A stretch of 64,000 nt of DNA from an uncultured cyanobacterium (GTDB lineage: Bacteria > Cyanobacteriota > Cyanobacteriia > Cyanobacteriales > CAWUOF01), in contig CAVUSO010000001.1 of NCBI GenBank assembly GCA_963744145.1, positions 1,504,001-1,568,000 on the forward strand, in the 5' to 3' direction. The notes beneath the pieces are model-generated. The model was not told where the DNA came from and did no database searches. It worked only from the letters and a program-made list of their open reading frames with translations. How positions within the stretch are numbered: position 1 is the first letter of the stretch; each line of letters opens with the position of its first letter. Shown here one piece after another: positions 1 to 24,630 of this stretch. The translations under genes were made by a program, and so were the position numbers.

Positions 1-1041
1 GAAAAAAGATTAAGACAAATATTAATGAATCTAGTAGGAAATGCCGTAAAATTTACAGAGCGCGGTAGTGTAACCTTAGAAACACAAGTATTACAAAAAC
101 ATGATGATAATGTCACAATTCGCTTTAGTGTTAGTGATACGGGAATTGGGATGACACCAGAACAAGTAGCCAAAATTTTTCTACCCTTTGAACAAGCTGG
201 GTCAGTATCTAAGCGACATGAAGGTACAGGATTGGGGTTAGCAATTTCTACAAAAATTGTACAGATGATGGGTAGTAAAATAGAACTAACTAGCACATTA
301 AATCAAGGTAGTAAATTTTGGATTGATCTCAAATTAATAATTTCTCAAGATTGGATTAGCACTGCTAGTCACAGCAGCAAAGGTAAAATTGCGGGTTATG
401 TTGGTGAACAGAAAAAAATCTTAGTAGTAGATGATAAAGAAGTAAATAGGGAAGTTTTAGTAGAGGTATTAAGACCATTAGGATTTATGATAGAAGAAGC
501 AGAAAACGGTGCAGAAGCATTAGAAAAAACCTTTTCTTTTCGACCAGACTTAATTATTACGGATATTGTTATGCCCGTAATGAATGGTTATGATTTCACC
601 CGTGAAGTTCGTCAGAAATATTTGCAAACAATACCGATTATTGCTTGTTCTGCTAGTGTTTCAGCTACTGATCGAGATTTAGCGATCGCATCCGGTTGTA
701 ATGATTTTATTGCTAAACCTGTCGAGATGGAAACTTTATTTACAATGTTACAACAATATTTGAAATTAAAATGGATTTATGAACAGCAGAAAGGGTTAAC
801 ATTAATAGATACTGAGGAAGAGAAAGAAATGGTTTTTCCTCAAGTAGAAGAAGTAATTAAGTTATATGAAGCTGCTCGAATTGGAGATGTTGATACGATT
901 AAAAGTGAAGCTGAAAGATTAGCACAAAGTAAACCGCAATATCAGCTTTTTGCGGCTCAAATTATTGAGCTTGCTGACCAATTTGATGATATTGGTATTA
1001 TGCGAATGATGCAGTCTATTTTAAATTCACCAACCAAGTAA
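1..1041 (+). CDS. Hybrid sensor histidine kinase/response regulator, C-terminal part (HATPase_c + receiver); 5' end outside window
   Basis: Frame open from base 1 (EKRLRQILMNLVGNAVKFT N-box); DTGIG and GTGLGL G-boxes; receiver motifs ILVVDD, DIVMP, KP. Confidence 0.93.
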   Translation, partial: EKRLRQILMNLVGNAVKFTERGSVTLETQVLQKHDDNVTIRFSVSDTGIGMTPEQVAKIFLPFEQAGSVSKRHEGTGLGLAISTKIVQMMGSKIELTSTLNQGSKFWIDLKLIISQDWISTASHSSKGKIAGYVGEQKKILVVDDKEVNREVLVEVLRPLGFMIEEAENGAEALEKTFSFRPDLIITDIVMPVMNGYDFTREVRQKYLQTIPIIACSASVSATDRDLAIASGCNDFIAKPVEMETLFTMLQQYLKLKWIYEQQKGLTLIDTEEEKEMVFPQVEEVIKLYEAARIGDVDTIKSEAERLAQSKPQYQLFAAQIIELADQFDDIGIMRMMQSILNSPTK

Positions 1042-1177
1042 TACCAATTTAATGTGAATTTGCATAGAGCTAGATCCCCCTAAATCCCCCTTAAAAAGGG
1101 GGACTTTAAATTCATGCTCCCCCTTTTTAAGGGGGCTGGGGGGATCAATTCTATGCACCCTCATCAAAAATTGGTAT
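1041..1177. mobile_element. MITE-like element with ATACCAATT...AATTGGTAT ends and internal CCCCCTTAAAAAGGGGG palindromes
   Basis: Terminal inverted repeat; same ends recur at 42344-42588. Confidence 0.65.
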
Positions 1178-1248
1178 AAGCAGTTGAGTAAAATCTCTAA
1201 AAAGCTACTTTTTGGTGAGCTGATTTGTAAGCATTATACATTTTTCGG

Positions 1249-1983
1249 TCATTCTGTTTTTAACCATTCTTGGTGAATTCTATTTGCTTCATTTGCAGAT
1301 AAGCTACCAGCTAATTTACCATTTTGCCAGAGCATACAATCATAGTCAAGCGATCGCCATCCAATCGTCATTCGGACTAACCCATCTGTCTGATCAGAGA
1401 TAAAGCTGTCAGCACCATGTTCACATTCAATATTATCAAATACCAATAAATCACCAGCTTCAGCGGATACTACTTCACTAGAACCATCTGAATAGAAAAG
1501 TCTTGTACCACCACTAGAGGTATGATTAACCAGAGTCAGGACTGCAACATATTTAGGTCTAATTGCATCAATGATATTTAAGGAATTATCTTCATTCACT
1601 TGAAAAGCTTGGAATTCACCATCAAAATGTTTACTCACAGGACTATTTGCTTGATGATAGAGCTGGATATTGAACAAGAGTCTAGTGGTGAGATCCGGAA
1701 TGTTCAAATAGGTTAAAATTTGATAGTTTAGATTAGCTATTTCCGGGGAACATTCAGCGATCAATTCGGTTCTAATTGCAGGTAAATCACCAGGGTGAGA
1801 TGCACTCCAAACATTAAAAGCGTAAGAATTACGTCCAGGTTTCTCATCGGAAAAATATGCAGAATGTTCGCGGAGATGATCTTCATTATAAAATCTATCA
1901 ATGATTTTATAAGTCCCGTTAATATAAGCTTCTAAGGACTGATTGCTGAGAAAATTTTTATAGAGAATATAGCGTAATGTCAT
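1249..1983 (-). CDS. 2OG-Fe(II) dioxygenase superfamily protein
   Basis: HxD (KHFDGE), distal His (CEHGAD), 2OG-binding Arg (RMTIGWRS), GGT and GDLLVFDN strands; ATGA overlap with upstream kinase. Confidence 0.8.
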   Translation of the reverse strand: MTLRYILYKNFLSNQSLEAYINGTYKIIDRFYNEDHLREHSAYFSDEKPGRNSYAFNVWSASHPGDLPAIRTELIAECSPEIANLNYQILTYLNIPDLTTRLLFNIQLYHQANSPVSKHFDGEFQAFQVNEDNSLNIIDAIRPKYVAVLTLVNHTSSGGTRLFYSDGSSEVVSAEAGDLLVFDNIECEHGADSFISDQTDGLVRMTIGWRSLDYDCMLWQNGKLAGSLSANEANRIHQEWLKTE

Positions 1984-2546
1984 AGATTCACTCCCACAAA
2001 TTTGAGAATATATTCAGGGGTACACTCGGCATTTTTTATTAAAAATATTTGGGTATATTGCTCAAACCATGCTTTCATTTTTGCTTGCATCTCTAAACAT
2101 TGTTCAAGCGTTTCATATCTACCACTTTGATGATAGCGTCGGCGATATTCAGATTCCTCCAGTTCGATAAAAAAGTTAAATATTTTAAAATCGTGTTGTT
2201 TGATTAGGTATTCTTCCCATTCTATTATAGCAGAGATGAGATGGGGAAAGGAATGCTCAGAGTAGTAGTTAGCGTAAAAAGCTGATAACATTAAACAGGT
2301 ATCAGATACGGCTAATTGGTATTTACTGGAAATTAAAGCTGTGATATAATGGCTTTGGTTTCCTAATACTGCTAACTGACCCAGCGGTGAGATCGGGATT
2401 TTTCTGATTGCCCAATCTTTAATAAATTCAGTAATCAGATGGGAATTAATCCCAGCTCGAGCAGTAGAAGCATAAATATCTGCTGCTAGGGTAGATTTAC
2501 CAACCCCTGGAGTACCAATCAAATTGATAATTTTAATGACTGTCAT
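1980..2546 (-). CDS. P-loop NTPase / putative nucleotide kinase (NadR/AAA_28-like, phage-type)
   Basis: N-terminal Walker A GTPGVGKST, VSDT strand, lid-like YHQSGRYE; 188 aa. Confidence 0.75.
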   Translation of the reverse strand: MTVIKIINLIGTPGVGKSTLAADIYASTARAGINSHLITEFIKDWAIRKIPISPLGQLAVLGNQSHYITALISSKYQLAVSDTCLMLSAFYANYYSEHSFPHLISAIIEWEEYLIKQHDFKIFNFFIELEESEYRRRYHQSGRYETLEQCLEMQAKMKAWFEQYTQIFLIKNAECTPEYILKFVGVNL

Positions 2547-2617
2547 TCCGAAAATAAGTTTTTGGTGGTAATTATATTATATTCTAAGTAAGTACAGGAG
2601 AAATCAGGGAGTAGTAA

Positions 2618-4405
2618 ATGTTCAAAAATTCCACCCATGCTTTTTGGTCAGGGTTAAGAACCATTTGGGAAACAGGAGCAACAATTACAGTGCGATCGCA
2701 AGAGACCAAAGAAGTGCGATCGCATCTGTGCAAAATTGCAGCTCCCTTAGAACGAGTTTATGTTATTCCCGATCGCCATAATAACATATTCGCTCAAATT
2801 GCCGAAAGTTTGTGGGTGATGGGAGGACGTAATGATCTGGAATTTTTATCCCCTTATTTACCCCGTGCGATTAATTTTTCTGATGATGGTAAAGTCTGGA
2901 GAGGTGCTTATGGTGCGAGATTAAGAAACTGGAAATGTTTCAACTCCGCTCAACATCCAGGTTTCGACTCCGCTCAACCTACAGGGTTTGACTCCGCTCA
3001 ACATTCAGGTTTCGACTCCGCTCAACCTACAGGGATAGATCAAATTAAAGAAGTAGTAAATATTTTAAATCAAGATCCCCATAGTCGTCGGGCTGTGATG
3101 ATTATATTTGATCCTGCACAAGATTATATAAACAGTAAAGATATTCCTTGTAACAATTGGCTTCATTTTCTGATTAGGGAAGGAAAACTTCATCTAAATG
3201 TATCCCTACGTTCTAATGATATTTGGTGGGGATTTTCAGGAATTAATACTTATGAATGGAGTGTCTTACAAGAAATGATCGCTTTTTGGACTGGTACTCA
3301 AGTAGGTGAGTATAGTCACTTTGCTAGTTCCTTTCATTTATACGATCGGCACTATCAATCAGCCCAAAAGATTCTAGCAAATACACCAGCTCAAACTTTA
3401 TATGATTTTGGGTTTACTCCTCCAAATTTTAGCACTCCTCTAACAGAGTTTGATCGGATAATGGAGGAATGGTTTGCGATCGAAAATAGAATGCGTCAAG
3501 GAAAATTCGACCTGACTCAAGCAATTAATAATTTTCCGGACAATTTGCTGAGAAATAGTTTAGAAATGCTAGAGATTTATAATCGCTTTTCTCACGGTGC
3601 TGCTCAGGAAGAAATAGTCAGATTAATAGAAGATTTACCAAGTAATGATTTTAAAGTTGCAGCAATTGAATATTTTTCCCGGAAATTTAAAAATCGACAG
3701 TTAATTAAACTAGAAGAGCAAGAGCGAGAATTTTTCCAATATTTTTGGTCAGACACTTTTTCTAGTAAGAAAGTAACTTGGATAGATTCCATTAATCATA
3801 ATCTGGTTGATAGATTTACCGCAATTTTCGCTCAATTAAGTATTCTGCACTATAAAAAAAGCTTGGTTTATAAAGATAGTTGGAAAAAGCATGGTGAGGT
3901 ACTAGGAGTTTTTTCAAATATCACCAGAAAATACGATCGAATTGAAACTGTATTCACTGAAGGGGTCAAAGCAACTTCCGATGAATCACTATTAGATACG
4001 ATCGCAGATTTAGCTGTTTATGCTACTAAATATCTTACTTACTTAGCCGAACATTATGAATCTATTTTCCAAGAATTTATTGAGCAATATTTACCAGCAG
4101 ATTCCATTGAAAACTACTACTATAATGAAGGTTTTGATGCAGTTGTAAAGATTTTAATTAAACGCTATAAAAGCACAAATAAATGGGAAGCGATCTCAAA
4201 TTATCCTGATTGCTTTACCACAATAAAAACTCATTACAAGGGATTAGAAGATGTACTAATCAATGGAGATTGGCGCAAAAGTGATCCTCGAAAATGTTCA
4301 CTAGCTGCGGATTTAGCAATTAGTGCAATGCACTATCTGGTCCTAGTATCAATGATTGAACCAGAAGATTTTAAACGGATTGTTAGCTTTATTGAAACCC
4401 TATGA
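2618..4405 (+). CDS. Thymidylate-synthase-fold enzyme (dUMP hydroxymethylase-like) fused to C-terminal DUF1599/Nmad1-like alpha-helical domain
   Basis: GAYGARLR, SRRAV, catalytic KDIPCN, RSNDIWWGFSGIN, SFHLY; C-terminal KKSLVYKDSW...RKYDRI...ESLLDTIADLAVY. Confidence 0.8.
   Translation: MFKNSTHAFWSGLRTIWETGATITVRSQETKEVRSHLCKIAAPLERVYVIPDRHNNIFAQIAESLWVMGGRNDLEFLSPYLPRAINFSDDGKVWRGAYGARLRNWKCFNSAQHPGFDSAQPTGFDSAQHSGFDSAQPTGIDQIKEVVNILNQDPHSRRAVMIIFDPAQDYINSKDIPCNNWLHFLIREGKLHLNVSLRSNDIWWGFSGINTYEWSVLQEMIAFWTGTQVGEYSHFASSFHLYDRHYQSAQKILANTPAQTLYDFGFTPPNFSTPLTEFDRIMEEWFAIENRMRQGKFDLTQAINNFPDNLLRNSLEMLEIYNRFSHGAAQEEIVRLIEDLPSNDFKVAAIEYFSRKFKNRQLIKLEEQEREFFQYFWSDTFSSKKVTWIDSINHNLVDRFTAIFAQLSILHYKKSLVYKDSWKKHGEVLGVFSNITRKYDRIETVFTEGVKATSDESLLDTIADLAVYATKYLTYLAEHYESIFQEFIEQYLPADSIENYYYNEGFDAVVKILIKRYKSTNKWEAISNYPDCFTTIKTHYKGLEDVLINGDWRKSDPRKCSLAADLAISAMHYLVLVSMIEPEDFKRIVSFIETL
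2938..3033 (+). repeat. Four tandem 24-bp units (core TTCGACTCCGCTCA) in frame inside the TS-like gene
   Basis: Translates as FNSAQHPG FDSAQPTG FDSAQHSG FDSAQPTG. Confidence 0.92.
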
Positions 4406-4528
4406 TTTGATGAAAAGCCTTAGTCATGGTGGATTTTTATTGTTCATTGTGTTTGAGCCAGTAAAAAATTGATAGAATAGAGGTAGTTAATCATCAATTT
4501 AGCCCCCCAATAGAGCAGGATTAGTAGC

Positions 4529-5398
4529 ATGGTTCAACAACTCCAACCAGAAATTATTTACCCGGAAAGCGACGGTCAACCAATGGCTGATAACACCGAA
4601 CAATTTAACTGGATTGTGATTATTAAAGAGAATTTAGAACGATTATTTGCTGGAATAGTTAATGTATTTATCGCGGGGAATCTGCTCTGGTATCCAGTCC
4701 AGGGAAGTTTACAGTCAATGGCACCCGATGTGATGGTCATCTTTGGTAGACCAAAAGGTAAAAGGGGTTCTTATCAACAATGGCTCGAAGCAAATATTCA
4801 CCCTCAAGTCGTCTTTGAAATTTTGTCTCCCAGCAATAAAGCTGCCGAAATGTCGAATAAATTCCTATTGTATCAACAATATGGGGTGGAAGAATATTAT
4901 ATTTATGATCCCCAACGAGTAGAATTGAGTGGCTTTTTACGTCGAGGAGAAATCTTAGAAGCGATCGACCAGATCCAAGGATGGGTTAGTCCCCGATTAG
5001 GAATCAGATTTGAACTCAAACCAGACACTTTGGAGATTTATCGTCCCGATGGAGAGAAGTTTCTTACCTCGATCGAACTCGATCAACTCACTCAGCAAGA
5101 ACGTCAACGTGCTGAACAAGAACATCAACGTGCTGAACAAGAACATCAACGTGCTGAGGTCGCTATGACCCAGCTTGAGCAAGAACGTCTTCGTGCTGAA
5201 CAAGAACGTCTTCGTGCTGAACAAGAACGTCTTCGTGCTGAACAAGAACATCAACGTGCTGAACAAGAACGTCTTCGTGCTGAACAAGAACATCAACGTG
5301 CTGAGGTCACTATGACCCAGCTTGAGCAAGAAAGACAGAATTATCAAGTTTTGCTGGCACTATTGCAAGCAAAGGGGATTGATTTAGAACAATTATAG
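4529..5398 (+). CDS. Uma2 family (DUF820) putative endonuclease with heptad coiled-coil tail, copy 1 (289 aa)
   Basis: YPESDGQPMADNT, APDVMV, VFEILSP, GVEEYY motifs; (RAEQERL/RAEQEHQ)n tail. Confidence 0.9.
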   Translation: MVQQLQPEIIYPESDGQPMADNTEQFNWIVIIKENLERLFAGIVNVFIAGNLLWYPVQGSLQSMAPDVMVIFGRPKGKRGSYQQWLEANIHPQVVFEILSPSNKAAEMSNKFLLYQQYGVEEYYIYDPQRVELSGFLRRGEILEAIDQIQGWVSPRLGIRFELKPDTLEIYRPDGEKFLTSIELDQLTQQERQRAEQEHQRAEQEHQRAEVAMTQLEQERLRAEQERLRAEQERLRAEQEHQRAEQERLRAEQEHQRAEVTMTQLEQERQNYQVLLALLQAKGIDLEQL

Positions 5399-7074: not shown

Positions 7075-7860
7075 ATGGTCCAACAACTCCAACCAGAAAT
7101 TATCTATCCTGAGAGCGACGGTCAACCGATGGCTGATAACACCGAACAATTTAACTGGATTGTCATTATTAAAGAGAATTTAGAAAGATTATTTGCTGGG
7201 GTAGTTAATGTATTTATCGCGGGTAACCTGCTCTGGTATCCAGTCCAGGGAAGTTTACAATCAGCAGCACCCGATGTCATGGTCATCTTTGGTAGACCAA
7301 AAGGTAAACGCGGCTCTTATCAACAATGGCTCGAAGCAAATATTCACCCTCAAGTCGTCTTTGAAATTTTGTCTCCCAGCAATAGCGCTACCGAAATGTC
7401 GAATAAATTCCTCCTTTATCAACAATATGGGGTGGAAGAATATTACATTTATGATCCCCAAGGAGTGGAATTGAGTGGCTTTTTGCGTCGAGGAGAAATC
7501 TTAGAAGCGATCGAGCAGATCCAAGGATGGGTTAGTCCCAGATTAGGGATCAGATTTGAACTCAAACCAGACACTTTGGAGATTTATCGTCCCGATGGAG
7601 AGAAATTTCTTACCTCGATCGAACTCGATCAACTCACTCAGCAAGAGCGTCAACGTGCTGAACAAGCTATGACCCAGCTTGAGCAAGAACGTCAACTTAT
7701 TCAACAAGAACGTCTTCGTGCTGAACAAGAACATCAACGTGCTGAACAAGAACGTCTTCGTGCTGAGGTCGCTATAACCCAGCTTGAGCAAGAAAGACAG
7801 AATTATCAAGCTTTACTAGCACTATTGCAAGCCAAGGGTATTGATTTAGAACAATTATAA
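7075..7860 (+). CDS. Uma2 family protein, copy 2 (261 aa)
   Basis: Near-identical to copy 1. Confidence 0.9.
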   Translation: MVQQLQPEIIYPESDGQPMADNTEQFNWIVIIKENLERLFAGVVNVFIAGNLLWYPVQGSLQSAAPDVMVIFGRPKGKRGSYQQWLEANIHPQVVFEILSPSNSATEMSNKFLLYQQYGVEEYYIYDPQGVELSGFLRRGEILEAIEQIQGWVSPRLGIRFELKPDTLEIYRPDGEKFLTSIELDQLTQQERQRAEQAMTQLEQERQLIQQERLRAEQEHQRAEQERLRAEVAITQLEQERQNYQALLALLQAKGIDLEQL

Positions 7861-8175: not shown

Positions 8176-9609
8176 TTAACTATTTGCTAAAGCCGTTAAA
8201 TTCAAGCTATTTAAAATACTAGATTTAATTGGGCGTTTGTCATCCCAAAAAATTAGTGATGAATAGAAATTGATTGCTGATGGTAAATTTAACAGCGAGA
8301 ATGTACGAGATGCAATTTGTTCATCATCAAAACTGAGAAAATAAACAGTATCATCAAAAACAGTGGGTTTGTCATTTATTTTCCCTACCAATCTGAATTC
8401 TAACTTTTTATAAAGCCCACAAATTGCTATTTTCCAAGTTGCGAAAGTGTATGCACCAACTCCAAAAATAGAAAAACGAGGATTATTCTGATATATTTTA
8501 CTTTTCCGATGATCTAGGTATTTTGCGTGATCCTCTAGATAAGTCCAAGTTTTAGGAGCAAATTTCTGGATATTTTCAGTAGATTGACCAATGAACTTTT
8601 GAGTAACTAAAACATATCGCTCCGTCACCATAATTCGATTTTGAGCTACATCAGAACCTTTGATTAAAGGAAACAAATAAGTATCTTCAATTTCGACTAT
8701 TTCTCCTAGTCCATTGACAAAATGATTACCATTCTTATAAAGTTCCATTATATTTGAACAATCATGTTTTATCCCAGAACGCCATTTTAACCCAGCAGTT
8801 GGCTCGTATAATTTGTTGAGTTTGTCAAAGCAATCTACATCTCTGACAAGAATACTATTTCGATATGCTATTCGATGATAGTTGGAATTTTCCAAGTCAC
8901 TAAATACATCACAGAAGTATTTGGGTGGGCTTGAATCAAATTGACAAACTAATAAACAAGAGTCAACCGTTGCATTAAAATATTTTTTTGCATCTATTTT
9001 ATAAGTTGCACAATTAGAAATTTTCAGCTTTTTAGAGTACAAATAGCTCAGTAACTTTCTCGCAACCGAAGTTTTACAAAGCATCGCAAGAGAAGCATCA
9101 CGGTTTTGGAACCAATGAACAACCTGAATTAACATCCACTCAGAAATATCGAAGTTACTTTTTCCAGCGATCGCATCAAAACCATGATAATTTTGAAAGT
9201 TATTTTTTTTAGGTAAATTAACACCCCCAATTGTACCTTGCTGTGAATTAGTTACCCAAGGAAAATTTCCTAGGACTAATATTTTTCCATCTAAAGAGTT
9301 TACTAATGACCACCAATCAAAACTAAAAAAGTTTCCCTGCTTAATCTCAATTCTTTGATCCTTTAAAATTATCTTTTTTTCAAATTCTTGTAAATAATAA
9401 GAATTAAGTTCTACTCCAATAATTTTATGAACTGAGGGGAAACAGAGTGCAGCAGTTTCAAGAAAGTTACCTACTCCACAGGTTGGGTCTAATATCACAT
9501 CAGGATTTATCCTAAGTTCTACTAATTTTTGGCATACCATCTTAGCTAGTTCTAATGGTGTCTGAAAATCTCCGTATTCTACTTTATTTTTGCGAATAGT
9601 ACGAATCAT
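8176..9609 (-). CDS. Amino-DNA methyltransferase of a type II R-M system (NspV-like)
   Basis: YGDFQTP, motif I DPTCGVGNF, motif IV GNFPW; ATGA overlap with upstream endonuclease gene. Confidence 0.85.
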   Translation of the reverse strand: MIRTIRKNKVEYGDFQTPLELAKMVCQKLVELRINPDVILDPTCGVGNFLETAALCFPSVHKIIGVELNSYYLQEFEKKIILKDQRIEIKQGNFFSFDWWSLVNSLDGKILVLGNFPWVTNSQQGTIGGVNLPKKNNFQNYHGFDAIAGKSNFDISEWMLIQVVHWFQNRDASLAMLCKTSVARKLLSYLYSKKLKISNCATYKIDAKKYFNATVDSCLLVCQFDSSPPKYFCDVFSDLENSNYHRIAYRNSILVRDVDCFDKLNKLYEPTAGLKWRSGIKHDCSNIMELYKNGNHFVNGLGEIVEIEDTYLFPLIKGSDVAQNRIMVTERYVLVTQKFIGQSTENIQKFAPKTWTYLEDHAKYLDHRKSKIYQNNPRFSIFGVGAYTFATWKIAICGLYKKLEFRLVGKINDKPTVFDDTVYFLSFDDEQIASRTFSLLNLPSAINFYSSLIFWDDKRPIKSSILNSLNLTALANS

Positions 9610-10268
9610 AAATTAGCTCTGTAAACAGCAATTATCCCTTCTTCTTGACCAGCACGTTCGATTACTCTTCTATACTGAAGTCTCCATTGCAAAGCATTAG
9701 AAATAGTCAAAAATCCTTGGATCGGAGGATTACTGAGGATTTCATCTGCAATATTAGTTGCCTCAATTTCATCAACAGGTAAATTTCTGTCAAACATAAA
9801 AGCAATTAAATCATCCTGATTACCTTGATTTTCTAAAATATTACGAATTCCACAAGTCATCTGAAAATCTGCTGTTCTCTCGGCACTAACATAGATTGTA
9901 TGCAAAATATTTAGAGTGGCAGTTTGATGAGCAGTATTGTCTGTTTTTTCGTAAACAAAAATCAGCAACGAATAACCAAGTCCAAAAATCTTTTGTCGTG
10001 CAGATTTAAAAGGACATGATGATTGCGGTTGTTTAATACTTGTTACTTTAACATCAACAAGTAGTTCTGGAAAATCTATCCCACTAGCTGAATTCCCTTC
10101 TATAAATTCATACCGATCATTGAGATAAAGTCTGAATTTTTGTTCCAAATAAGTACCCACAGCTTTACCGTCTGTGATCCCGTAAAGTGAGGGTTCTTGG
10201 TGTCGAGACTCGACGACTGAGAATAGCGCTGCTTCAGAACATAAGGTTTTTATAGTTAGGATTGGCAT
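9606..10268 (-). CDS. Type II restriction endonuclease (PD-(D/E)xK, NspV-like)
   Basis: GIDFPELLVDVKVT catalytic-type motif; coupled to MTase; NspV-like assignment is from recollection only. Confidence 0.72.
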   Translation of the reverse strand: MPILTIKTLCSEAALFSVVESRHQEPSLYGITDGKAVGTYLEQKFRLYLNDRYEFIEGNSASGIDFPELLVDVKVTSIKQPQSSCPFKSARQKIFGLGYSLLIFVYEKTDNTAHQTATLNILHTIYVSAERTADFQMTCGIRNILENQGNQDDLIAFMFDRNLPVDEIEATNIADEILSNPPIQGFLTISNALQWRLQYRRVIERAGQEEGIIAVYRANL

Positions 10269-12342: not shown

Positions 12343-13922
12343 AGTAGTCGGACATAAATAAAGTTAACTATGTTAACTTTATTTAAGAGTAAATTTGACC
12401 CACAAATTTACCAGAGAAAAGCATATAAAAGTATTCCCTCCGTCCAACTGAATAGGTTTCACTAGAGAGTAAGAAAACTGCATTTCCAGATTTTCTATTA
12501 ACTATAAATATGGTCAGTTTTGCCTCAGCCTCTCATTAAACAATTAATGGAATTTTTCCGGTTGACTAGAACTAGAATAAACCCGATTAGGATTTTTGTT
12601 CATCCTGGCTAGGCTGACCACCAAATCTAAATCTTTTTACTTCTAAGCCCTTACTAGTTTGACGAGCTTCGATTGCTGCTCTTACCGCGATGGTTAATTC
12701 ATATTCATTCTCAAACATTTGACCAGCTAATTCATCTTCTTTGATTCTTTCCCACTCCGTTTCAATCAGATTTAATTCGGGAGAGTAACTGGATAATAGG
12801 AATATATATAATCCTTGTTTTTCCCATTGATCATAGTTGCTCTTCGTCAATTTACTTACGTGAACGGAATATTGGTCTTGGACAATTACAGTTATTTTGC
12901 CCGTTTCTTTCAATCTAGTTTCCGCTTGCGCGGCTTGCCAATCCATTAATTTGATATAATTCTTACTGTCAAAACTCTTAAAACTTAATCCATATTCAAA
13001 GCTTTCTCCCACGGCCAAAAATCCACATATATTTAATCTTTTCCCTTTCTTTTTAGGCTGTTTGATCTGTTTCTGTTGGCCGATTTTCCCCCAGGTATAT
13101 ACAGGTTCAGCCCACAGGCTAAATCCTGATTCATCCAAATATTTTAAACATATTTCACCCGCGGCTGCCGCGAATTCCAACATCTCTAAATCATTTCTTT
13201 TAGTTGCTCTTTTTTCCTGGTCTTGCTTTCCTTTTAGAGATGTTCTCGTTCTTTTCCACCGATAGTTTTTTTTGAGGATTCGACGCAACTGTCTTTGGCT
13301 CAGTTTTACTTGCCTTTCCTGGGCTAGATATTTCACTAACTGACGACTATTATAAGCTCGTTCCTCTGTCTCTAGTTTTTTTTCAATTTCTGCCAAATCT
13401 GCCTGACTCCATTTTCTTTTCCTGCCCGGACGAGGCGCATCCCATAATCCTGCTAATCCCTGTTTTTCCCAACGATGTATTGTGGCTCTCACTGTCTTAA
13501 TTGACCAGTTCAGATACTTGCCGATCTGTTCCACTTTCCATCCCATTGATGATAATCTCAAGTTCGCAGCCCAATCTCTTGTTCTTAGTGGAACTCCCTC
13601 GGCTCTATTTAATTCCCATAAGGTTTGATTTTCCGCAGATGTTAAAAATATTCTCAAAGGAGGAGATGACATTTTCTTCAAACTTTTAAGTTAGCTCTAT
13701 AATTATTTCACAATCAGGGTGTTTTTTTTGAAGCTAAAATCGACCTCACTTATCCCCTTAATTACCAAAATAAGTCTAATTTTTTGCTCCCATTGTCCAG
13801 CCACTTCTTTGGCCAATCTTCCCCAGATTGGACTAATTTTTCGATGACTTTGTCCAGCTTATTGCTTGACCCATACGTTTTACAAAAGTTAATACAGTAC
13901 CTATTACTTTTGTCCGACTACT
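12343..13922 (-). mobile_element. IS630-family insertion sequence
   Basis: Terminal IR AGTAGTCGGACA at both ends; TA target duplicated at 12341-12342 and 13923-13924. Confidence 0.93.
12587..13681 (-). CDS. IS630 family transposase
   Basis: HTH N-terminus; DESGF, VQDQ..VH, SPELNLIE DDE triad. Confidence 0.93.
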   Translation of the reverse strand: MKKMSSPPLRIFLTSAENQTLWELNRAEGVPLRTRDWAANLRLSSMGWKVEQIGKYLNWSIKTVRATIHRWEKQGLAGLWDAPRPGRKRKWSQADLAEIEKKLETEERAYNSRQLVKYLAQERQVKLSQRQLRRILKKNYRWKRTRTSLKGKQDQEKRATKRNDLEMLEFAAAAGEICLKYLDESGFSLWAEPVYTWGKIGQQKQIKQPKKKGKRLNICGFLAVGESFEYGLSFKSFDSKNYIKLMDWQAAQAETRLKETGKITVIVQDQYSVHVSKLTKSNYDQWEKQGLYIFLLSSYSPELNLIETEWERIKEDELAGQMFENEYELTIAVRAAIEARQTSKGLEVKRFRFGGQPSQDEQKS

Positions 13923-16061
13923 TAGCAATAGTTTTCCCATCAGCACTAAAAGCTACCGAGAAAACTGGATCTGAATGTCCCGATAAACTCCGTAAGCATT
14001 TCCCTGTATCGACATCCCACAGTTTCACCATTTTATCATTACTACCACTCGCAAGTATTTTACCATCTGGACTGAATGCAACTGACCTTACTTGTTCGGT
14101 ATGTCCATCGATAGTTTTGAGACATTTTTCAGTCTCAACATCCCATAACTTCACCAATTTGTCTTCGCTACCAGTCGACCAAACGTTTACCATCTGGATG
14201 GAAGACAACAGACCGTACTGCTTTACCAGGTTCATCAGTTACCTTCAAAGTCTTTAAGCATTCACCTGTATTGACTGACCATAACATTACATTTTGGTCT
14301 GCACTTCCACTCGCTAAAATTTCACTGTCAGCACTGAAAACCACTGATCTGACTTGGTTAGTATGTCCTGACAAAGTTTTATGACTTTCAAATAAATTAC
14401 TATTAGATGACTTTCTATATAAACGCACCTTTAGGTCAGTACAAGCACTAGCTAAAAATTCACCATTAGGACTAAAAGCAACAGACCAGACCCACTGAGG
14501 ATGTTTAATCACCTGAATTTCTTTACCATCAGGCATTTCCCATAAACGGAGTTCATGCTTAGAATCACCTGTCGCGAAAATTTTTCCATCGGAGCTAAAA
14601 GCAACTGATAATATATTGCCAATAGTTTCAGCAAAAACCGAATTTTGAAAATCAGCGTTAGCAAAATTTACATCATATAGTTTAGCATTCCTTAGATCGG
14701 CTTGCCAAACAGGCAAATTAGAGAAATCATATCCGTTTAAATCAGACTTTAAATAGCCAAGCAAGTTAAGGATGTTTCCTGCTGCATATCCCTTTGCTCC
14801 TGGTAATTTTCGGAGATTTGATAGAATCTGCTTTAGCTGATTTTCCACATTTATTTCTTCAGTAAGTTTACTTACTGGGTCTAGTATGAGACGTATTTGA
14901 AAATCTCTCACATAATCTTTTGCTTGAGCTTTAATCAAAGCATGAGTCTTAAAAATTTTAATCTTATCAGTTTTAATTTCTTCACATATTATCTCAACTA
15001 ATTGCTTGGTCATATACTCCATAATTACAGGCTGTAATGAAAAACGAGTTCCAGCCTTCTCAAGTGGTAAGCGTCGTTCTAGCGATTCGATCGTGTCCGG
15101 TATTTCTTGTTGATTTTTAGAGAAGAGTGTATCTGTCTTTAATTCAGAGAGTAAACAATACTCACGATTAATTGCTAACCAGTACATAATCTCTTTTTCT
15201 GACTCATTCAAACGTTCTTCAAAATACCACTTTAACAAATCTTCAATACTGCGAATAGTTCTATTATGTTGTTGTAAAAAAGCCCTAATATTACCATTAT
15301 AAATGGCTTTAATATGTTTGGCGACAAGTTCTAATGCTAATGGATTGCCATCATAATCTGTAATGATTTGGTTCCAGTCATTCTCTGAGCCGTCAAAGCT
15401 TCCTATAGCGGTAAAAATTTTTTGTCCGTCTAACAACTTCAGTCCTGACAATGGTAGTACACGAACTGATCCTGTTGGGCTTTCCAGCACTTCAATATCT
15501 TGAGGTTTTTCACGACTTGTTAATAATAAACAACTTTTATGAGATTCTTTCCCTACTCGCTCCAGCAACTGACCATACCCTTCATATCCACTTCGGTATT
15601 GCCCAGATATTTCACCACCTTGTAAAATTGATTCTGCATTATCTAATATCACTAGACAGCGACGCGATCTTAAAGAGTCAAGCAAGAGTGATATTTGTTG
15701 CTCTGGCTTGTTTGGTAAATCAATTTTCTTGTTATCAGAAAGAAATTGGATCAGGTCTCTCAAAATTTCTTCTAACCGTGGAGCATTTAATAGCGATCGC
15801 CATATTAAATATTGAAAGTTGTCTTTAATATGTTTGGCTAATTTCAGGGAGAGATCCGTTTTACCTATCCCACCCAAGACTAGATTTGTTTTACCTATCC
15901 CACGCATCCCTATAATCGCCACCAGTTTGCATTTATCTTTAATAATCCATTGTTCTAAATCCTCTAGTTCTTTAGTGCGTCCATAGAAAACGGGTACATC
16001 AGGCGCATCGTCCAAGTTTTGATGGCATATATTGTTCTCGTTTTTTACTCCATAAATTAAT

Positions 16062-16496
16062 TTAATAGCCACAATCTAACCAAATTACTTGTTGTTTAAC
16101 TTCACTTTCTAGTAAGATATCTTGCAGCCATGATAAAGAAACACCATATACTTCTTTTCTAGGACAAGCCTCGCTAGTAGCTAAAAATCCTTCTTTTAAT
16201 CCTCGTGGTTCTCGCAAACCGTGTCCAGCAAAAAATAGCAGGGCTGTATCAGGGCAATTTTTTTCTCCGATCGCGAACAGTTTGATGATTGCTTCTTTTA
16301 GCTCTGGTGCTGTAACATTTCCTTTGGGATCGATTTTGAATGTTCCGTCCGGGATAGTAGGAATCTGATGGACTACTGAAAAGTGGCCATAATTTTTTAG
16401 TAGATCAGCGATCGCTTCTGCATCAGATGCTGGTTTGTCTAAATTGTTTAGGAAAGGATATCGATTGATGCCCACGACCAGTGCTTGACGGTTCAT
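16062..16496 (-). pseudogene. Caspase-like (peptidase C14) domain, truncated
   Basis: MNRQALVVGINRY...DAEAIA...FFAGHG...IWLDC then GY-stop; probable ATG at 16496. Confidence 0.8.
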
Positions 16497-16732
16497 CTTA
16501 CTTGCCTCAACACGCTTATGACCTAGTATGATAGCACTTATGAGATATTTTAACCATATTTGCCAATACAAGTTAACACAGGACGCTAGTATAGAACAGC
16601 AAGGAAAACAAGAAACAGAATTGCTAATGTCCAAATTTTCTCAGGAGTAGCGATCGCGACTCTATAAATAAACCAAGTGCTAAATTATGATAAAATATTA
16701 CTATACGTGCAGTTAATGCCACTCACAAGACT

Positions 16733-17767
16733 ATGCCCGCATTCTATTTTAGCCAAATCGATACAGAAGCAGAAGCCTATCTTTTAGGTCGTATTGCTAG
16801 CGATACCAGCGTCATTACCAAAGACTCGCTCATCATCCAATTTCACCCAAATGAAAAAGAGCTGATCGAAAAAATCAGCTACAAGCTAAAAATTACCTTA
16901 AGTCCCAGAGCGTTAACAATTACTTCTCCAGAAATATTACAAAATATCTGCAAAATTCTCGATATAGAACCCGAAACCAAATCTACAGATGTTAACTTTC
17001 CTTCCTTAGATTTAGAGGAATTAACATGGGCATTTATTAGAGGTTATTTTGATGGTAATGGTGAAATATCTAGGGTTGATAATAATCGCTCACCTCACTG
17101 TAAAATAGTCACAAATTCAATCAAAATAATAGCTGGAATTAGAGATTTCTGTAAGATTAAATCTAGGGAAACTAATGAAGGATTAGTATGGGATGATAAT
17201 AATGCCCTCGATTTCTTAGGAAAACTCTACGAAAATGCCAAAATTTACTTTCCTAGAAATCGCGAGTTATATTTAGATTGGGCTTCTTGGGTTCCTGCTC
17301 TTTCCGGATCTAACAATTATGGTAGACTCAAAAGTTTCCGATGGACAAAAAGTCACCCAAAAGCGTTCCCCCCTTTCAAACAAAGAGTTTCAGACTCTGG
17401 TTTTGATTTAACGTTAATTGATATTGTCGAACAAATTGGTAATGTGCAAGTTTACGATACTGGGATCAAAGTTCAACCGGAATATGGATGGTATTTCATT
17501 ATTGCTCCCCGTAGTTCCCTATTCAAAAAAGGATATATCCCAGCAATTACTACTGGAATTATCGATCGCACTTATGTCGGTTCTATCAAAGTACCCTTAA
17601 TAAAATTTGACCAGAATGCTCCTGATTTAGAATTGCCCTATCGTGCTATGCAAATCATTCCTACACCCATAGTTCATGTTGATCTTGTAGAAGTTGATGA
17701 TTTGGAAGAAACTAACAGAGGAACTGGTGGTTTGGGTTCGAGTGGTGATGCAATTTATCCCAAATGA
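16733..17767 (+). CDS. dut: LAGLIDADG-like domain fused to trimeric dUTPase
   Basis: AYLLGRIASD and FIRGYFDGNG helices; dUTPase motifs SGFDL, PRSS, GIIDRTYVG, AMQII, RGTGGLGSSG. Confidence 0.85.
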   Translation: MPAFYFSQIDTEAEAYLLGRIASDTSVITKDSLIIQFHPNEKELIEKISYKLKITLSPRALTITSPEILQNICKILDIEPETKSTDVNFPSLDLEELTWAFIRGYFDGNGEISRVDNNRSPHCKIVTNSIKIIAGIRDFCKIKSRETNEGLVWDDNNALDFLGKLYENAKIYFPRNRELYLDWASWVPALSGSNNYGRLKSFRWTKSHPKAFPPFKQRVSDSGFDLTLIDIVEQIGNVQVYDTGIKVQPEYGWYFIIAPRSSLFKKGYIPAITTGIIDRTYVGSIKVPLIKFDQNAPDLELPYRAMQIIPTPIVHVDLVEVDDLEETNRGTGGLGSSGDAIYPK

Positions 17768-18863: not shown

Positions 18864-19607
18864 ATGGTCCAACAACTCCAACCAGAAATTATTTACCCAG
18901 AGAGCGACGGTCAACCGATGGCTGATAATACTGAACAATTTAACTGGATTGTGATTATTAAGGAGAATTTAGAAAGATTATTTGCTGGGATAGCTAATGT
19001 ATTTATCGCGGGTAATCTGCTCTGGTATCCAGTTCAGGGAAGTTCACAATCAGCAGCGCCCGATGTGATGGTCATCTTTGGGAGACCAAAAGGTAAACGG
19101 GGTTCCTATCAACAATGGCTCGAAGAAAATATTCACCCTCAAGTAGTATTTGAAATTTTGTCTCCTAGCAATAACGCTACCGAAATGTTGAATAAATTCC
19201 TATTCTATCAACAATATGGGGTGGAAGAATATTACATTTATTATCCCCAACGAGTGGAATTGAGTGGCTTTTTGCGTCGAGGAGAAATCTTAGAAGCGAT
19301 CGACCAGATCCAAGGATGGGTTAGTCCCAGATTAGGAATCAGATTTGAACTCAAACCAGACACTTTGGAGATTTATCGTCCCGATGGAGAGAAGTTTCTC
19401 ACCTCGATCGAACTCGATCAACTCACTCAACAAGAGCGTCAACGTGCCCAACAAGAACATCAACGTGCTGAACAAGAACATCAACGTGCCCAACAAGCTA
19501 TAACCCAGCTTGAGCAAGCTATGACCCAGCTTGAGCAAGAAAGACAGAATTATCAAGCTTTACTAGCACTATTGCAAGCCAAGGGGATTGATTTAGAACA
19601 ATTATAG
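18864..19607 (+). CDS. Uma2 family protein, copy 3 (247 aa)
   Basis: Near-identical to copies 1-2. Confidence 0.9.
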   Translation: MVQQLQPEIIYPESDGQPMADNTEQFNWIVIIKENLERLFAGIANVFIAGNLLWYPVQGSSQSAAPDVMVIFGRPKGKRGSYQQWLEENIHPQVVFEILSPSNNATEMLNKFLFYQQYGVEEYYIYYPQRVELSGFLRRGEILEAIDQIQGWVSPRLGIRFELKPDTLEIYRPDGEKFLTSIELDQLTQQERQRAQQEHQRAEQEHQRAQQAITQLEQAMTQLEQERQNYQALLALLQAKGIDLEQL

Positions 19608-19758
19608 CAACTTATCATGACGTTTGAGCATTAATTTTCAGTCAGTATTTCCCCGTAATTGCGATCGCCGGTCAAATTGTGTTTGAGCCAGTCAAGAATT
19701 GATAGAATAGGGATAGTTAATCATCAACTTAGCCCCCCAATAGAGCAGGAGTAGTAGC

Positions 19759-20460
19759 ATGGTCCAACAACTCCAACCAGAAATTATCTATCCTGAGAGC
19801 GACGGTCAACCGATGGCTGATAACACCGAACAATTTAACTGGATTGTGATTATTAAAGAGAATTTAGAAAGATTATTTGCTGGGATAGCTAATGTATTTA
19901 TCGCGGGTAATCTGCTCTGGTATCCAGTTCAGGGAAGTTCACAATCAGCAGCGCCCGATGTGATGGTCATCTTTGGGAGACCAAAAGGTAAACGAGGTTC
20001 CTATCAACAATGGCTCGAAGAAAATATTCACCCTCAAGTAGTATTTGAAATTTTGTCTCCTAGCAATAACGCTACCGAAATGTTGAATAAATTCCTATTC
20101 TATCAACAATATGGGGTAGAAGAATATTACATTTATGATCCCCAACGAGTGGAATTGAGTGGCTTTTTGCGTCGAGGAGAAATCTTAGAAGCGATCGATC
20201 AGATCCAAGGATGGGTTAGTCCCAGATTAGGAATCAGATTTGAACTCACACCAGACACTTTGGAGATTTATCGTCCCGATGGAGAGAAATTTCTTACCTC
20301 GATCGAACTAGATCAACTCACTCAACAAGAACGTCAACGTGCTGAACAAGCTATAACCCAGCTTGAGCAAGCTATGACCCAGCTTGAGCAAGAAAGACAG
20401 AATTATCAAGCTTTACTAGCACTATTGCAAGCAAAAGGTATTGATTTAGAGCAATTATAG
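19759..20460 (+). CDS. Uma2 family protein, copy 4 (233 aa)
   Basis: Tandem duplicate including intergenic DNA. Confidence 0.9.
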   Translation: MVQQLQPEIIYPESDGQPMADNTEQFNWIVIIKENLERLFAGIANVFIAGNLLWYPVQGSSQSAAPDVMVIFGRPKGKRGSYQQWLEENIHPQVVFEILSPSNNATEMLNKFLFYQQYGVEEYYIYDPQRVELSGFLRRGEILEAIDQIQGWVSPRLGIRFELTPDTLEIYRPDGEKFLTSIELDQLTQQERQRAEQAITQLEQAMTQLEQERQNYQALLALLQAKGIDLEQL

Positions 20461-20611
20461 CAACTTGTCATGGCGTTTGAGCATTAATTTTCAGTCAGTA
20501 TTTCCCCGTAATTGCGATCGCGGGTCAAATTGTGTTTGAGCCAGTCAAGAATTGATAGAATAGGGATAGTTAATCATCAACTTAGCCCCCCAACAGCTTA
20601 GGAGTAGTAGC

Positions 20612-21334
20612 ATGGTTCAACAACTCCAACCAGAAATTATCTATCCTGAGAGCGACGGTCAACCGATGGCTGATAACACTGAACAATTTAACTGGATTGT
20701 AATTATTAAAGAGAATTTAGAAAGATTATTTGCTGGGATAGTTAATGTATTTATCGCGGGTAATCTGCTCTGGTATCCAGTTCAGGGAAGTTTACAATCA
20801 GCAGCGCCCGATGTGATGGTCATCTTTGGGAGACCAAAAGGTAAACGGGGTTCTTATCAACAATGGCTCGAAGCAAATATTTACCCTCAAGTCGTCTTTG
20901 AAATTTTGTCTCCCAGCAATAACGCTACCGAAATGTTGAATAAATTCCTATTCTATCAACAATATGGGGTGGAAGAATATTACATTTATGATCCCCAACG
21001 AGTCGAATTGAGTGGCTTTTTGCGTCGAGGAGAAATCTTAGAAGCGATCGATCAGATCCAAGGATGGGTTAGTCCCAGATTAGGAATCAGATTTGAACTC
21101 AAACCAGACACTTTGGAGATTTATCGTCCCGATGGAGAGAAGTTTCTTACCTCGATCGAACTAGATCAACTCACTCAACAAGAGCGTCAACGTGCTGAAC
21201 AAGAACGTCAACGTGCTGAACAAGCTATAACCCAGCTTGAGCAAGCTATGACCCAGCTTGAGCAAGAAAGACAGAATTATCAAGCTTTACTAGCACTATT
21301 GCAAGCAAAGGGTATTGATTTAGAGCAATTATAG
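20612..21334 (+). CDS. Uma2 family protein, copy 5 (240 aa)
   Basis: Tandem duplicate; 853-bp period from copy 4. Confidence 0.9.
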   Translation: MVQQLQPEIIYPESDGQPMADNTEQFNWIVIIKENLERLFAGIVNVFIAGNLLWYPVQGSLQSAAPDVMVIFGRPKGKRGSYQQWLEANIYPQVVFEILSPSNNATEMLNKFLFYQQYGVEEYYIYDPQRVELSGFLRRGEILEAIDQIQGWVSPRLGIRFELKPDTLEIYRPDGEKFLTSIELDQLTQQERQRAEQERQRAEQAITQLEQAMTQLEQERQNYQALLALLQAKGIDLEQL

Positions 21335-22172: not shown

Positions 22173-22820
22173 CTATCTTAACAGATGCGATCGCACCCAT
22201 TCTCTCCAAGCTCTAATTATAGTAGTATCGTCTTCAATTTCGATCAATTGCAAAAACTGATTAATAATCGCGATCGAGACGATAGGAAAATTATAACTAT
22301 ATTCAGAGCTGATATATTCCCCATTTTGAAGTTGATAAAATTCAACCATCTCTCCTCGACAACGCCAAATTTCTGGAATTCCGAGCTGTGTGTAAATTGC
22401 CAATCTGCTACTTGATAAACTGGTAATATCAACTTCAATTACTAAATCGGGTGGAGGATCAGTAGATAGATCAATTCTGCGACCCTGAATCCGGTCAACA
22501 TTTTTTATATAATAGCAGGAATCAGGTTCAGATCCCCGTTGCAAATCTTCCCGATTCAAAGTTACTGAAGCAAATCCTTTTACTCGTAAATTCAGCTCCT
22601 CGGTTAAAGTATTTACCATTCTTTCTAAGAGTTGCTTGTAAGTTTCATGACGATCTGATGGCATTGTTATTTCTAGTGATCCCTGAACATAAGCAAGACG
22701 TAAAGCGCGATGATCTCCCAATTCTACTAACAGCGTTTTGTAAGTTTGCCAGCTAATATTTTGTAAAATAATCCTCTGGGTAGGTGACTGAGGTAAATTT
22801 TCTAGGGCAGTAATTATCAT
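22173..22820 (-). CDS. Uma2 family endonuclease (different subfamily)
   Basis: ISWQTY, EPDSCYY, PPPDLVIEVD, GIPEIW. Confidence 0.9.
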   Translation of the reverse strand: MIITALENLPQSPTQRIILQNISWQTYKTLLVELGDHRALRLAYVQGSLEITMPSDRHETYKQLLERMVNTLTEELNLRVKGFASVTLNREDLQRGSEPDSCYYIKNVDRIQGRRIDLSTDPPPDLVIEVDITSLSSSRLAIYTQLGIPEIWRCRGEMVEFYQLQNGEYISSEYSYNFPIVSIAIINQFLQLIEIEDDTTIIRAWREWVRSHLLR

Positions 22821-24036: not shown

Positions 24037-24630
24037 TTAAACTTTGGGTAGCACCACTTTTTCCGGTTGATCTTGATATTTACCTGATCTTTGTGCGTAG
24101 GTAGTCTGACAAGAATCTCCTTCCAAAAAAAGTAATTGACAAACACCTTCATTAGCATATATACGTGCATCAGCAGGAGAAGAATTAGAAAATTCTAAAG
24201 TTAAATGTCCTCTCCATCCTGCTTCACCGGGAGTGACATTAGCAATAATCCCACATCGAGCTAGGGTACTTTTTCCCATACAAATCACTGTAATATTTCC
24301 CGGTATTTCTAATCGCTCTAAAGCTACTCCTAACCCGTAGGATCTTCCTGGTAAAATAAAAAACTCTCCATCGCGATCGCGGTGTAGTGCTGTGACTTCT
24401 AAATTATCAGGATTAAACCGTTTGGGATTAACAATCGTCCCCGGTACATGACGAAAAATCCGAAACTCTTGGGGCGATAATCTGATATCATAACCATAAC
24501 TGGAACATCCATAGGATAACACCGATATAGTTTGATCCTCAAATTGCATACTTCGCACCAATTTAGGCTCATAAGGCTCAATCATACCTTGAGCGGCCAT
24601 TTGGGCGATCCAAATATCATTTTTAATCAT
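24037..24630 (-). CDS. dcd: dCTP deaminase
   Basis: MIKNDIWI, SYGCSSYGYDIRL, GKSTLARCG, EAGWRGHLTLE; start probably 24630 or 24633. Confidence 0.95.
   Translation of the reverse strand: MIKNDIWIAQMAAQGMIEPYEPKLVRSMQFEDQTISVLSYGCSSYGYDIRLSPQEFRIFRHVPGTIVNPKRFNPDNLEVTALHRDRDGEFFILPGRSYGLGVALERLEIPGNITVICMGKSTLARCGIIANVTPGEAGWRGHLTLEFSNSSPADARIYANEGVCQLLFLEGDSCQTTYAQRSGKYQDQPEKVVLPKV

Follow-up and report, generated by a model that had tools for sequence, protein, structure and literature searches.

A 64,000-nt window (the whole stretch of DNA analysed here) of contig CAVUSO010000001.1, from an uncultured cyanobacterium, carries near its start a gene for a 595-aa fusion of a thymidylate synthase (TS)-fold domain with an all-helical domain. 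Divergent from it are genes for a P-loop kinase and for a 2-oxoglutarate (2OG)-Fe(II) oxygenase-fold protein. We tentatively favour the interpretation that a nucleotide pathway of phages with 5-hydroxymethyluracil (5-hmU) in their DNA has been domesticated in a cyanobacterial thymidylate locus, and that this pathway makes 5-hydroxymethyl-dUMP (hmdUMP) that feeds DNA. The enzyme set may supply, or replace, the thymine of this organism's DNA. No ordinary thymidylate synthase or thymidylate kinase (Tmk) was found in the genome, only a gene of the phage dUMP hydroxymethylase (HMase) type, which would imply either a new route to dTTP or a cellular 5-hmU genome. To our knowledge, nearly all free-living bacteria are taken to have a thymidylate synthase (ThyA or ThyX) and a thymidylate kinase, and we know of full replacement of thymine by 5-hmU only in phages. 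A literature search found no paper combining 'dUMP hydroxymethylase' with 'cyanobacteria'.

Coordinates are positions in the window unless prefixed C1 (the contig) or L (a relative's locus). The genome of origin is labelled G000, other genomes of the order carry G labels, and the loci of relatives carry L labels. The G000 assembly consists of 4 contigs totalling 7.70 Mb, with a completeness score of 96.3%. Among sequencing runs no RNA holder of the sequence is listed, and the DNA holder is a single soil-metagenome run. The features central to the analysis are as follows.

1249-1983, minus strand: 2OG-Fe(II) oxygenase-fold protein (244 aa), translationally coupled to the kinase; about 17 C-terminal residues lost to a TGA
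1980-2546, minus strand: P-loop kinase (188 aa), AAA_28 / NadR-RNK-like (AAA_28 1.5e-7; phrog_2107 8.5e-11)
2547-2617, no strand: divergent intergenic region between the kinase and fusion genes, 71 bp
2618-4405, plus strand: fusion protein (595 aa) of two domains, TS-fold (residues 1-380) and helical (residues 381-595)
2618-3757, plus strand: phage-type dUMP 5-hydroxymethylase-like TS domain, residues 1-380, with Cys178, Asp175 (position Cys-3), Arg199 and Asn210
2937-3033, plus strand: in-frame tandem repeat, 24 bp x 4 (Tandem Repeats Finder: period 24, 4.0 copies, score 145)
3758-4405, plus strand: C-terminal domain, residues 381-595 (215 residues), all-helical, gp30/Nmad1(DUF1599)-like

A sequence-only reading of this DNA had proposed a pyrimidine-modification system of these three genes, and much of its description was borne out. 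All three were found as open reading frames (ORFs). The two minus-strand genes are coupled through an ATGA overlap of 4 nt ('tcat' on the plus strand at 1980-1983), the divergent spacer has the length of 71 bp given there, and the motifs KDIPCN and RSNDIWWGFSGIN are both present in the 595-aa translation. Its remark that phage structural genes are absent also held: PHROGs searches of 26 further window ORFs and Pfam searches of 6 + 17 gave no coherent head, tail or packaging module. The enzyme classes stood as well. By profiles, phage matches, signature columns and tree, the TS-fold protein belongs with the phage dUMP hydroxymethylases rather than with canonical ThyA; the kinase is a phage-type P-loop kinase; and the 244-aa protein has an oxygenase fold with an HxD...H...R motif. 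The expected company of modification genes was likewise found, as relatives of the fusion adjoin genes for the modification of 5-hydroxymethyl-deoxyuridine (5-hmdU) in DNA. Conservation of the exact trio and the proposed action of the oxygenase on hmdUMP were not supported (see below). It had been silent on the nature of the C-terminal domain, the upstream genes for DUF1643 and HMUDK_hel (the helical domain of 5-hmdU DNA kinase), the failure to find a canonical thymidylate synthase or kinase in the genome, the in-frame repeat at 2937-3033 and the TGA that ends the 244-aa ORF at a family-conserved Trp.

The TS-Fold Domain

The N-terminal domain of the fusion matches PF00303 in Pfam (2.2e-24, residues 11-259) and phrog_5131 in PHROGs (4.8e-76, residues 3-361). 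In a sequence search of the PDB the CMP hydroxymethylase MilA is the best solved-structure relative (3.5e-25), and the best canonical TS of known structure matches at 2.4e-15 over residues 128-257 only. All eight NCBIfam TS models score the fusion below their cut-offs, the best reaching 95.4 bits where 174.55 are needed. The protein has neither the equivalog score nor the LPPCH motif of canonical ThyA, nor the free C-terminal tail that closes the active site, since about 335 residues follow the TS core.

Among 50,697 phage records searched, 650 match the TS domain and 106 cover at least 80% of it. The commonest first words of the 650 record names are Salmonella (162), Bacillus (105) and Pseudomonas (73), and the matches listed are, besides SP-10, largely from SPO1-like, ViI-like and Yua/M6-like phages, groups with 5-hmU or hypermodified thymine. 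By tblastn, SPO1 gp29, annotated as a dUMP hydroxymethylase, aligns over 93% of the query (residues 4-357, 29% identity, 6e-41) and the SP-10 dUMP hydroxymethylase over 95% (residues 4-364, 32% identity, 2e-39), a full-length likeness that spans an extension of about 100 residues beyond the TS core.

Cys178 and the phosphate-binding Arg199 align with those of SPO1, SP10 and ThyA. The available text of PMC6400193, a study of the dCMP hydroxymethylase of T4, proposes a water-activating signature of hydroxymethylation, namely Asp at the third position upstream of the catalytic Cys, which in TS enzymes is occupied by Leu. In our alignment this Asp is found in the fusion (KDIPC), SPO1 gp29 (KDRPC), SP10 (LDRPC), Yua (KDLPC) and Det7 (KDMVC), and also in bacterial relatives of about 360 aa; cyanobacterial ThyA has Leu at this position (KLPPC), and in the cyanobacterial TS that we call type B (see below) it is taken by Ser or Gly. 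The signature also has a Ser-x-Tyr part, which is missing from the fusion and equally from SPO1 gp29, so that it does not discriminate among dUMP enzymes. At the base-specificity position the fusion has Asn (GFSGIN), as do SPO1 gp29 and ThyA in the alignment, where MilA has Asp, and the predicted specificity is for uracil rather than cytosine. In a maximum-likelihood tree of 27 rows, the fusion-type TS domain (type A) clusters with the phage HMases and is separated from ThyA and type B; the support for this split, 88/93, is moderate and below the tool's strong threshold. By these sequence comparisons, membership of the N-terminal domain in the phage dUMP hydroxymethylase (SPO1 gp29) family is well supported.

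The in-frame repeat adds about 32 residues (SAQHPGFDSAQPTGFD...) to a loop of the TS domain, between 'RLRNWK' and 'GIDQIKEV'. The closest relative reads RLRNWQGIDQIEEV at this site, and the insert is absent from it and from the other relatives. Contig C1 has 11 copies of the 13-nt repeat core, grouped into 7 clusters, and another cluster of 3 copies lies at C1:139775. PADLOC returned no family for the fusion or for the 188-aa kinase.

The C-Terminal Domain

Residues 381-595 have no Pfam match; for PF07659 (Nmad1/DUF1599) there is none in our protein at E<=0.1, and relative P0202 matches it weakly (2.8e-4, below the cut-off). The nearest ESM Atlas clusters carry DUF1599 (score 0.92), and Foldseek found no match for the domain in the PDB. 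The family comprises 1198 cluster representatives at E<=1e-3, in which the domain stands alone (~195 aa) or is fused to TS-like, MazG_C, HMUDK_hel or protein-kinase domains.

Profile comparison connects the domain with SPO1 gp30 (98.5%, E 3.3e-15) and SP10 gp189 (98.9%, E 1.2e-17). These two proteins are annotated only with 'DNA replication', and their genes lie just downstream of the phage hydroxymethylase gene, a few genes away or immediately; the fusion is therefore the gp29-gp30 pair in joined form. SPO1 gene 30 is required for SPO1 DNA synthesis; the listings of a literature search gave no paper on the biochemistry of SPO1 gp30. The fold of the gp30-like domain appears closer to a pyrophosphatase than to any known kinase. 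Yua gp18 and Det7 gp109, considered as further homologues, show no likeness to the domain.

Eight loci with stand-alone homologues of the domain were annotated. HMUDK_hel adjoins in five of them, from metagenome-assembled genomes of Solirubrobacterales (four) and Actinomycetes (one), accompanied by a TylF-type methyltransferase in three and by MazG in two. A TS-like gene was matched by Pfam in one of the eight loci and by tblastn in one more.

Missing Thymidylate Genes

The only PF00303 match in G000 is the fusion gene itself. Pfam profiles run against the G000 contigs gave no match for PF02511 (ThyX), PF02223 (Tmk), PF00186 (dihydrofolate reductase, DHFR) or PF00265 (thymidine kinase), and tblastn searches with the ThyX, type B and Tmk of relatives gave only weak matches, mainly to the fusion gene. 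With ThyX, type-B ThyA, Tmk, DHFR and thymidine kinase not found, the module appears to carry the whole thymidylate branch rather than to be an accessory to it, a takeover that is read from absences in an assembly that is probably metagenome-derived.

We surveyed 301 genomes of the order, scoring Tmk as present at E<=1e-10. Tmk is present in 283 and missing from 18, and the C-terminal domain occurs in 17. Fourteen of these 17 genomes lack Tmk, as against 4 of the 284 without the domain. The presence of the domain goes with Tmk loss across the survey, and the finding provides the SPO1 gp30/Nmad1 family with a testable function. The 14 are G000, G003, G025 and 11 Laspinema-like genomes; two of the latter, G138 with 3 contigs and G236 with 1, have completeness scores of 100%. 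The four Tmk-less genomes without the domain have completeness scores of 92, 94, 77 and 84%. The three exceptions, with both the domain and Tmk, belong to one genus; two have a truncated or fragmented fusion. In the third, G129 (Oscillatoria princeps-like), the fusion is intact and the C-terminus of the Tmk-like ORF is short; that tmk is broken in G129 was considered and set aside, the ORF being short at that end only.

ThyX was found in 177 and PF00303 in 125 of the 301 genomes; as read from the two lists, 8 have both, so that 7 have neither. The fusion is the sole TS-family gene in G000 and G129, and the other genomes with the C-terminal domain keep ThyX or type B. In the Laspinema-like genomes, which keep ThyX and lack Tmk, the C-terminal domain is conserved at ~60% identity while the HMase domain decays. 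The gp30-like domain is the only shared candidate that we saw for dTMP phosphorylation in Tmk-less genomes with ThyX or type B. In actinobacterial or alphaproteobacterial genomes with the fusion, Tmk was present in 5 of the 5 tested.

Two weak Tmk matches were rejected, that in G018 as an adenylate kinase and that in G001 as a 134-aa mini kinase. The latter (L089:778-1182) is a Tmk-like P-loop protein with the motif IDGNDGTGKTT and the sole Tmk-like match in G001, which is the only other genome of the window's family and is also without a normal Tmk.

The Kinase and the Oxygenase-Fold Protein

The only link of the 188-aa kinase to Tmk is phrog_2107, a phage 'thymidylate kinase' profile that also matches NadR-like proteins; PF02223 does not match it at E<=0.1 in Pfam. 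A sequence search of the PDB gave nothing significant for the kinase or for the 244-aa protein. In the order survey the kinase was found in G000 and G003 only, plus a weak match in G011, so that it was rejected as a general substitute for Tmk; in other Tmk-less genomes neither the single protein nor a 7-sequence profile (A4) found it, and the phrog_2107 matches there are NadR-like proteins.

The family of the 244-aa protein is small, with 40 members among 5.8 billion proteins searched, and H119, D121, H189 and R204 are invariant across 36 of them. The AlphaFold2 model (predicted local distance difference test, pLDDT, 94.8) has prolyl hydroxylases, AlkB-like proteins and SnoK/N as its top Foldseek matches (E from 5e-8, prob 1.0). 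At least 500 PDB entries match it at E<=0.001, and among the matches listed nearly all are of the 2OG-oxygenase type. The protein itself has no Pfam match, and one relative matches PF13640 at 4.2e-4. Its ORF ends '...EWLKTE*PKNV*' where the family reads 'EWPKMFENY...KVAF', so that the full-length family architecture (~262 aa with an EWP...KAAF tail) is not seen in it.

Eleven metagenome loci with relatives of the 244-aa protein were examined. A kinase homologue (34-38% identity) lies directly upstream, overlapping, in five of them, and three others contain a short TS-like gene of ~280 aa with a KDVPC motif. The neighbours include dUTPase, weakly Tmk-like, HAD phosphatase, NUDIX and phage-like genes. 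This pairing and this company suggest that the kinase and the oxygenase-fold protein form a phage nucleotide-metabolism cassette. The trio as such is not a conserved unit: among 55 loci with relatives of the fusion, the 244-aa protein occurs in 0 and the kinase in 1. Nor is the proposal of an oxygenase acting on hmdUMP supported as it was put in the sequence-only reading, and the oxygenase tail is truncated. A scan for promoter-like sites gave none in the 71-bp spacer and 12 in 1000-4700, with 13.9 expected.

The Fusion Locus Here and in Relatives

HMUDK_hel adjoins the fusion in 8 of 12 annotated loci. It is missing from the remaining four, the same four in which the HMase domain no longer has its catalytic Cys and Arg. 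Genes for DUF1643, Nmad2, ThsB-type TIR or TylF-type methyltransferase are found in several fusion loci. In G000, DUF1643 (6e-46) and HMUDK_hel (9.1e-106; 325 aa) are encoded at C1:1497636-1499220.

In cyanobacterial relatives the fusion lies in a conserved locus with ThyX or type B, dUTPase, dCMP deaminase or DCD, CobO and RNase PH. Type B is a protein of ~500 aa that combines an N-terminal domain (~200 aa), an archaeal-like TS core (PPCLNH...RSNDMF) and PterinBD-DUF4346, and it looks like the housekeeping thymidylate synthase of many cyanobacteria. Of 30 sampled relatives, 14 have ThyX and 14 have PF00303 (type B in each locus read), never together, and 2 have neither; in three loci Tmk is the neighbour of ThyX or type B. 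In the closest relative (L013) the gene order is kinase, type-B TS, fusion, and in G000 type B is absent, with 71 bp left. Type B genes were located at L005, L006, L010-L012, L013:5125-6651 and L015:7974-9467. In many relatives the ThyX match is split (profile 1-85 and 86-191) within ORFs of 440-700 aa, an indication that ThyX carries inteins or inserts there.

Two further genes of nucleotide metabolism lie in the window.

16733-17767, plus strand: fusion of an endonuclease-like N-terminus with a trimeric-type dUTPase (PF00692 9.8e-16, residues 216-338; phrog_135 2.1e-27; phrog_4645 2.8e-14)
24037-24675, minus strand: dCTP deaminase-like gene (PF22769 1.9e-24), syntenic with L013, L014, L015 and L018

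The endonuclease-dUTPase fusion is a possible source of dUMP. The dCTP deaminase-like gene, CobO (24708-25235) and RNase PH (25467-26216) mark the far end of the conserved thymidylate locus; in the closest relative the dCTP deaminase (L013:10064-11122) has an intein.

Comparison with Known Systems

SPO1 gp29/gp30 and SP-10 gp188/gp189 are homologues of the two domains of the fusion, with an N-terminal match over 93-95%, the K-D-x-P-C motif and the Asn. They are separate proteins in the phages, whereas here a single 595-aa fusion is encoded on a cyanobacterial chromosome, at 29-32% identity and with a 32-residue repeat insert.

DS-4, a DefensePredictor system validated as anti-phage in E. coli, comprises, in the available text of PMC13092281, a thymidylate synthase (361 aa), an 'adenylate kinase', HMUDK_hel, TIR and Nmad2. 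Like the present module, it has HMUDK_hel, a TS-like protein whose KD(I/V)PCNN motif is of the same type, and what is described as a P-loop kinase. As described there, DS-4 is a compact five-gene unit and its TS of 361 aa is without the gp30-like domain. Here the TS-like gene and the kinase are adjacent, but HMUDK_hel lies 7.4 kb off beside DUF1643, a 2OG oxygenase is added, and the host thymidylate genes were not found in G000. Of the DS-4 partners, Nmad2 was not found in G000 by tblastn with one Nmad2 protein, and none of the annotated ORFs, which cover a stretch starting 14 kb upstream of the window and ending at window position 31079, has a TIR domain. The likeness links this recently validated defence system with core nucleotide metabolism.

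The phage thymidine-hypermodification clusters of ViI, M6, SP10 and PhiW-14, as presented in the text available for PMC8989533, likewise bring a dUMP hydroxymethylase, a dNMP kinase and a 5-hmdU DNA kinase together as one functional set. The same text describes the phage 5-hmdU DNA kinases as P-loop kinases, whereas the G000 protein lacks a Walker A motif and its match is to the Pfam helical-domain model alone. Genes for aGPT-Pplase/AADT, pyridoxal phosphate (PLP) or radical S-adenosylmethionine (SAM) enzymes were not seen among the annotated neighbours of the fusion. T4 dCMP hydroxymethylase and Streptomyces MilA share with the fusion the TS fold, the catalytic Cys and the Asp three residues upstream. 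Both have Asp at the base-specificity position (cytosine), whereas the fusion has Asn (uracil, as predicted) and is without Ser-x-Tyr.

Proposed Pathway and Alternatives

In the hmdUMP pathway that we favour, the N-terminal domain of the fusion would convert dUMP and methylene-tetrahydrofolate to hmdUMP, with tetrahydrofolate rather than dihydrofolate (DHF) released. The C-terminal domain, by its observed homology to SPO1 gp30, may handle the phosphate state of 5-substituted dUMP. It might be an all-alpha dUTP/dUDP pyrophosphatase feeding dUMP, or it might provide the missing monophosphate-kinase step; of the two, the latter is favoured by its anticorrelation with Tmk. The divergent P-loop kinase and the coupled oxygenase would represent a phage cassette working on the same nucleotide pool. 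The product would enter DNA, where HMUDK_hel and DUF1643 could then act on 5-hmU residues. Such a pathway would bear on the interpretation of long-read data from these cyanobacteria and on the restriction and cloning of their DNA. In its boldest form, which we judge to be unlikely, 5-hmU or a derivative replaces most or all thymine in G000, and perhaps in G129, having been made by the domesticated phage pathway after the loss of TS and Tmk, and the gp30/Nmad1-like domain is a new non-P-loop enzyme for the (hm)dUMP-to-diphosphate step.

Several observations weigh against the hmdUMP pathway. The product of the fusion could be dTMP. In twelve of the 14 Tmk-less genomes with the C-terminal domain the HMase domain is catalytically dead and ThyX or type B is retained; since these genomes must still make dTTP, Tmk loss alone does not mean hmU chemistry, and since the 14 are kin, falling in 4 families, they represent few independent events. 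G129, the other genome with type A only, keeps a Tmk-like ORF that is merely short at its C-terminus. In G000 itself HMUDK_hel, which has no Walker A, is separated from the fusion gene downstream of it by 7.4 kb containing two histidine-kinase genes, and the oxygenase tail is truncated, with a TGA in place of the family-conserved Trp and a decayed frame beyond. The assembly is probably metagenome-derived, the listed holder being only a soil metagenome run, contig C1 ends without overlap in the circularity check, and completeness is 96.3%. An assembly artefact is nevertheless unlikely, given that type B is deleted at its syntenic place and that loss of Tmk recurs in genomes with full completeness scores.

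A non-orthologous displacement with ordinary chemistry, in which the fusion makes dTMP, the gp30-like domain and/or the 188-aa kinase replaces Tmk and the thymine of the DNA is normal, seems to us somewhat doubtful but deserves weight. Every cell needs a T-like nucleotide, and no TS-family gene other than the fusion was found; the locus in which the genes stand is the conserved one for dTMP, where relatives have type B or ThyX alongside; the Laspinema-like genomes, ThyX-positive and Tmk-less, keep the C-terminal domain, as would fit the handling of dTMP; and G129 combines type A as its only TS-family gene with a Tmk-like ORF. The need for a T-like nucleotide and the Laspinema-like genomes thus favour dTMP as the product or, at least, a C-terminal domain that handles dTMP. 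The residues of the N-terminal domain point the other way, with Asp at Cys-3 where TS enzymes have Leu (PMC6400193, available text), as do its grouping with experimentally known HMases in the tree and the ~335 residues after the core that leave no free TS C-terminus. No DHFR was found in G000 for the recycling of DHF, and intact HMase residues co-occur with HMUDK_hel. The Asp signature, the tree, the missing DHFR and the company of HMUDK_hel are the reasons for which hmdUMP is preferred.

Alternatively, the genes could be a DS-4-like anti-phage or DNA-marking island without a housekeeping role, acting only on infection or marking few T positions, while the canonical genes are merely unassembled. 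DS-4 scored as defensive in E. coli (PMC13092281, as far as its text is available), the actinobacterial and alphaproteobacterial relatives occur with Nmad2, TIR, resolvase or relaxase and have Tmk in all five genomes tested, the window has Uma2 genes and a type II restriction-modification pair close by, and G000 is scored 96.3% complete. However, Tmk is missing from 13 other genomes with the C-terminal domain, two of them scored 100% complete (1 and 3 contigs), the type-B gene is missing exactly at its syntenic place, and neither Nmad2 (tblastn against G000) nor TIR (ORFs annotated around the locus) was found, which makes such an island improbable. A nucleoside-antibiotic or other secondary-metabolite pathway on a ribonucleotide, as with MilA in mildiomycin, would agree with MilA as the best solved-structure match and with oxygenases and kinases being common tailoring enzymes. 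It is hardly credible, as the fusion has Asn where MilA has its base-specificity Asp, the annotated neighbours include no biosynthetic cluster genes, and the relatives are tied to DNA-modification genes.

Other Genes of the Window

Six paralogues of the Uma2 family (putative restriction endonucleases) lie at 4529-5398, 7075-7860, 18864-21334 and 22173-22820. The first two have nearly identical N-termini and end in 21-bp tandem repeats encoding EQERLRAEQEHQRA-type heptads. The type II restriction-modification pair is at 8176-10268 on the minus strand (PADLOC MTase_II 1.4e-221, REase_II 1.5e-131). At 14168-16634, also on the minus strand, an NB-ARC/WD40 protein (634 aa) overlaps a caspase-domain protein (190 aa), with a DDE_3 transposase adjacent at 12587-13681. 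At 1060-1140, 3' of a histidine-kinase gene, there is a palindromic element of G/C runs (CCCCCTTAAAAAGGGGG and related copies) that appears terminator-like in the scan.

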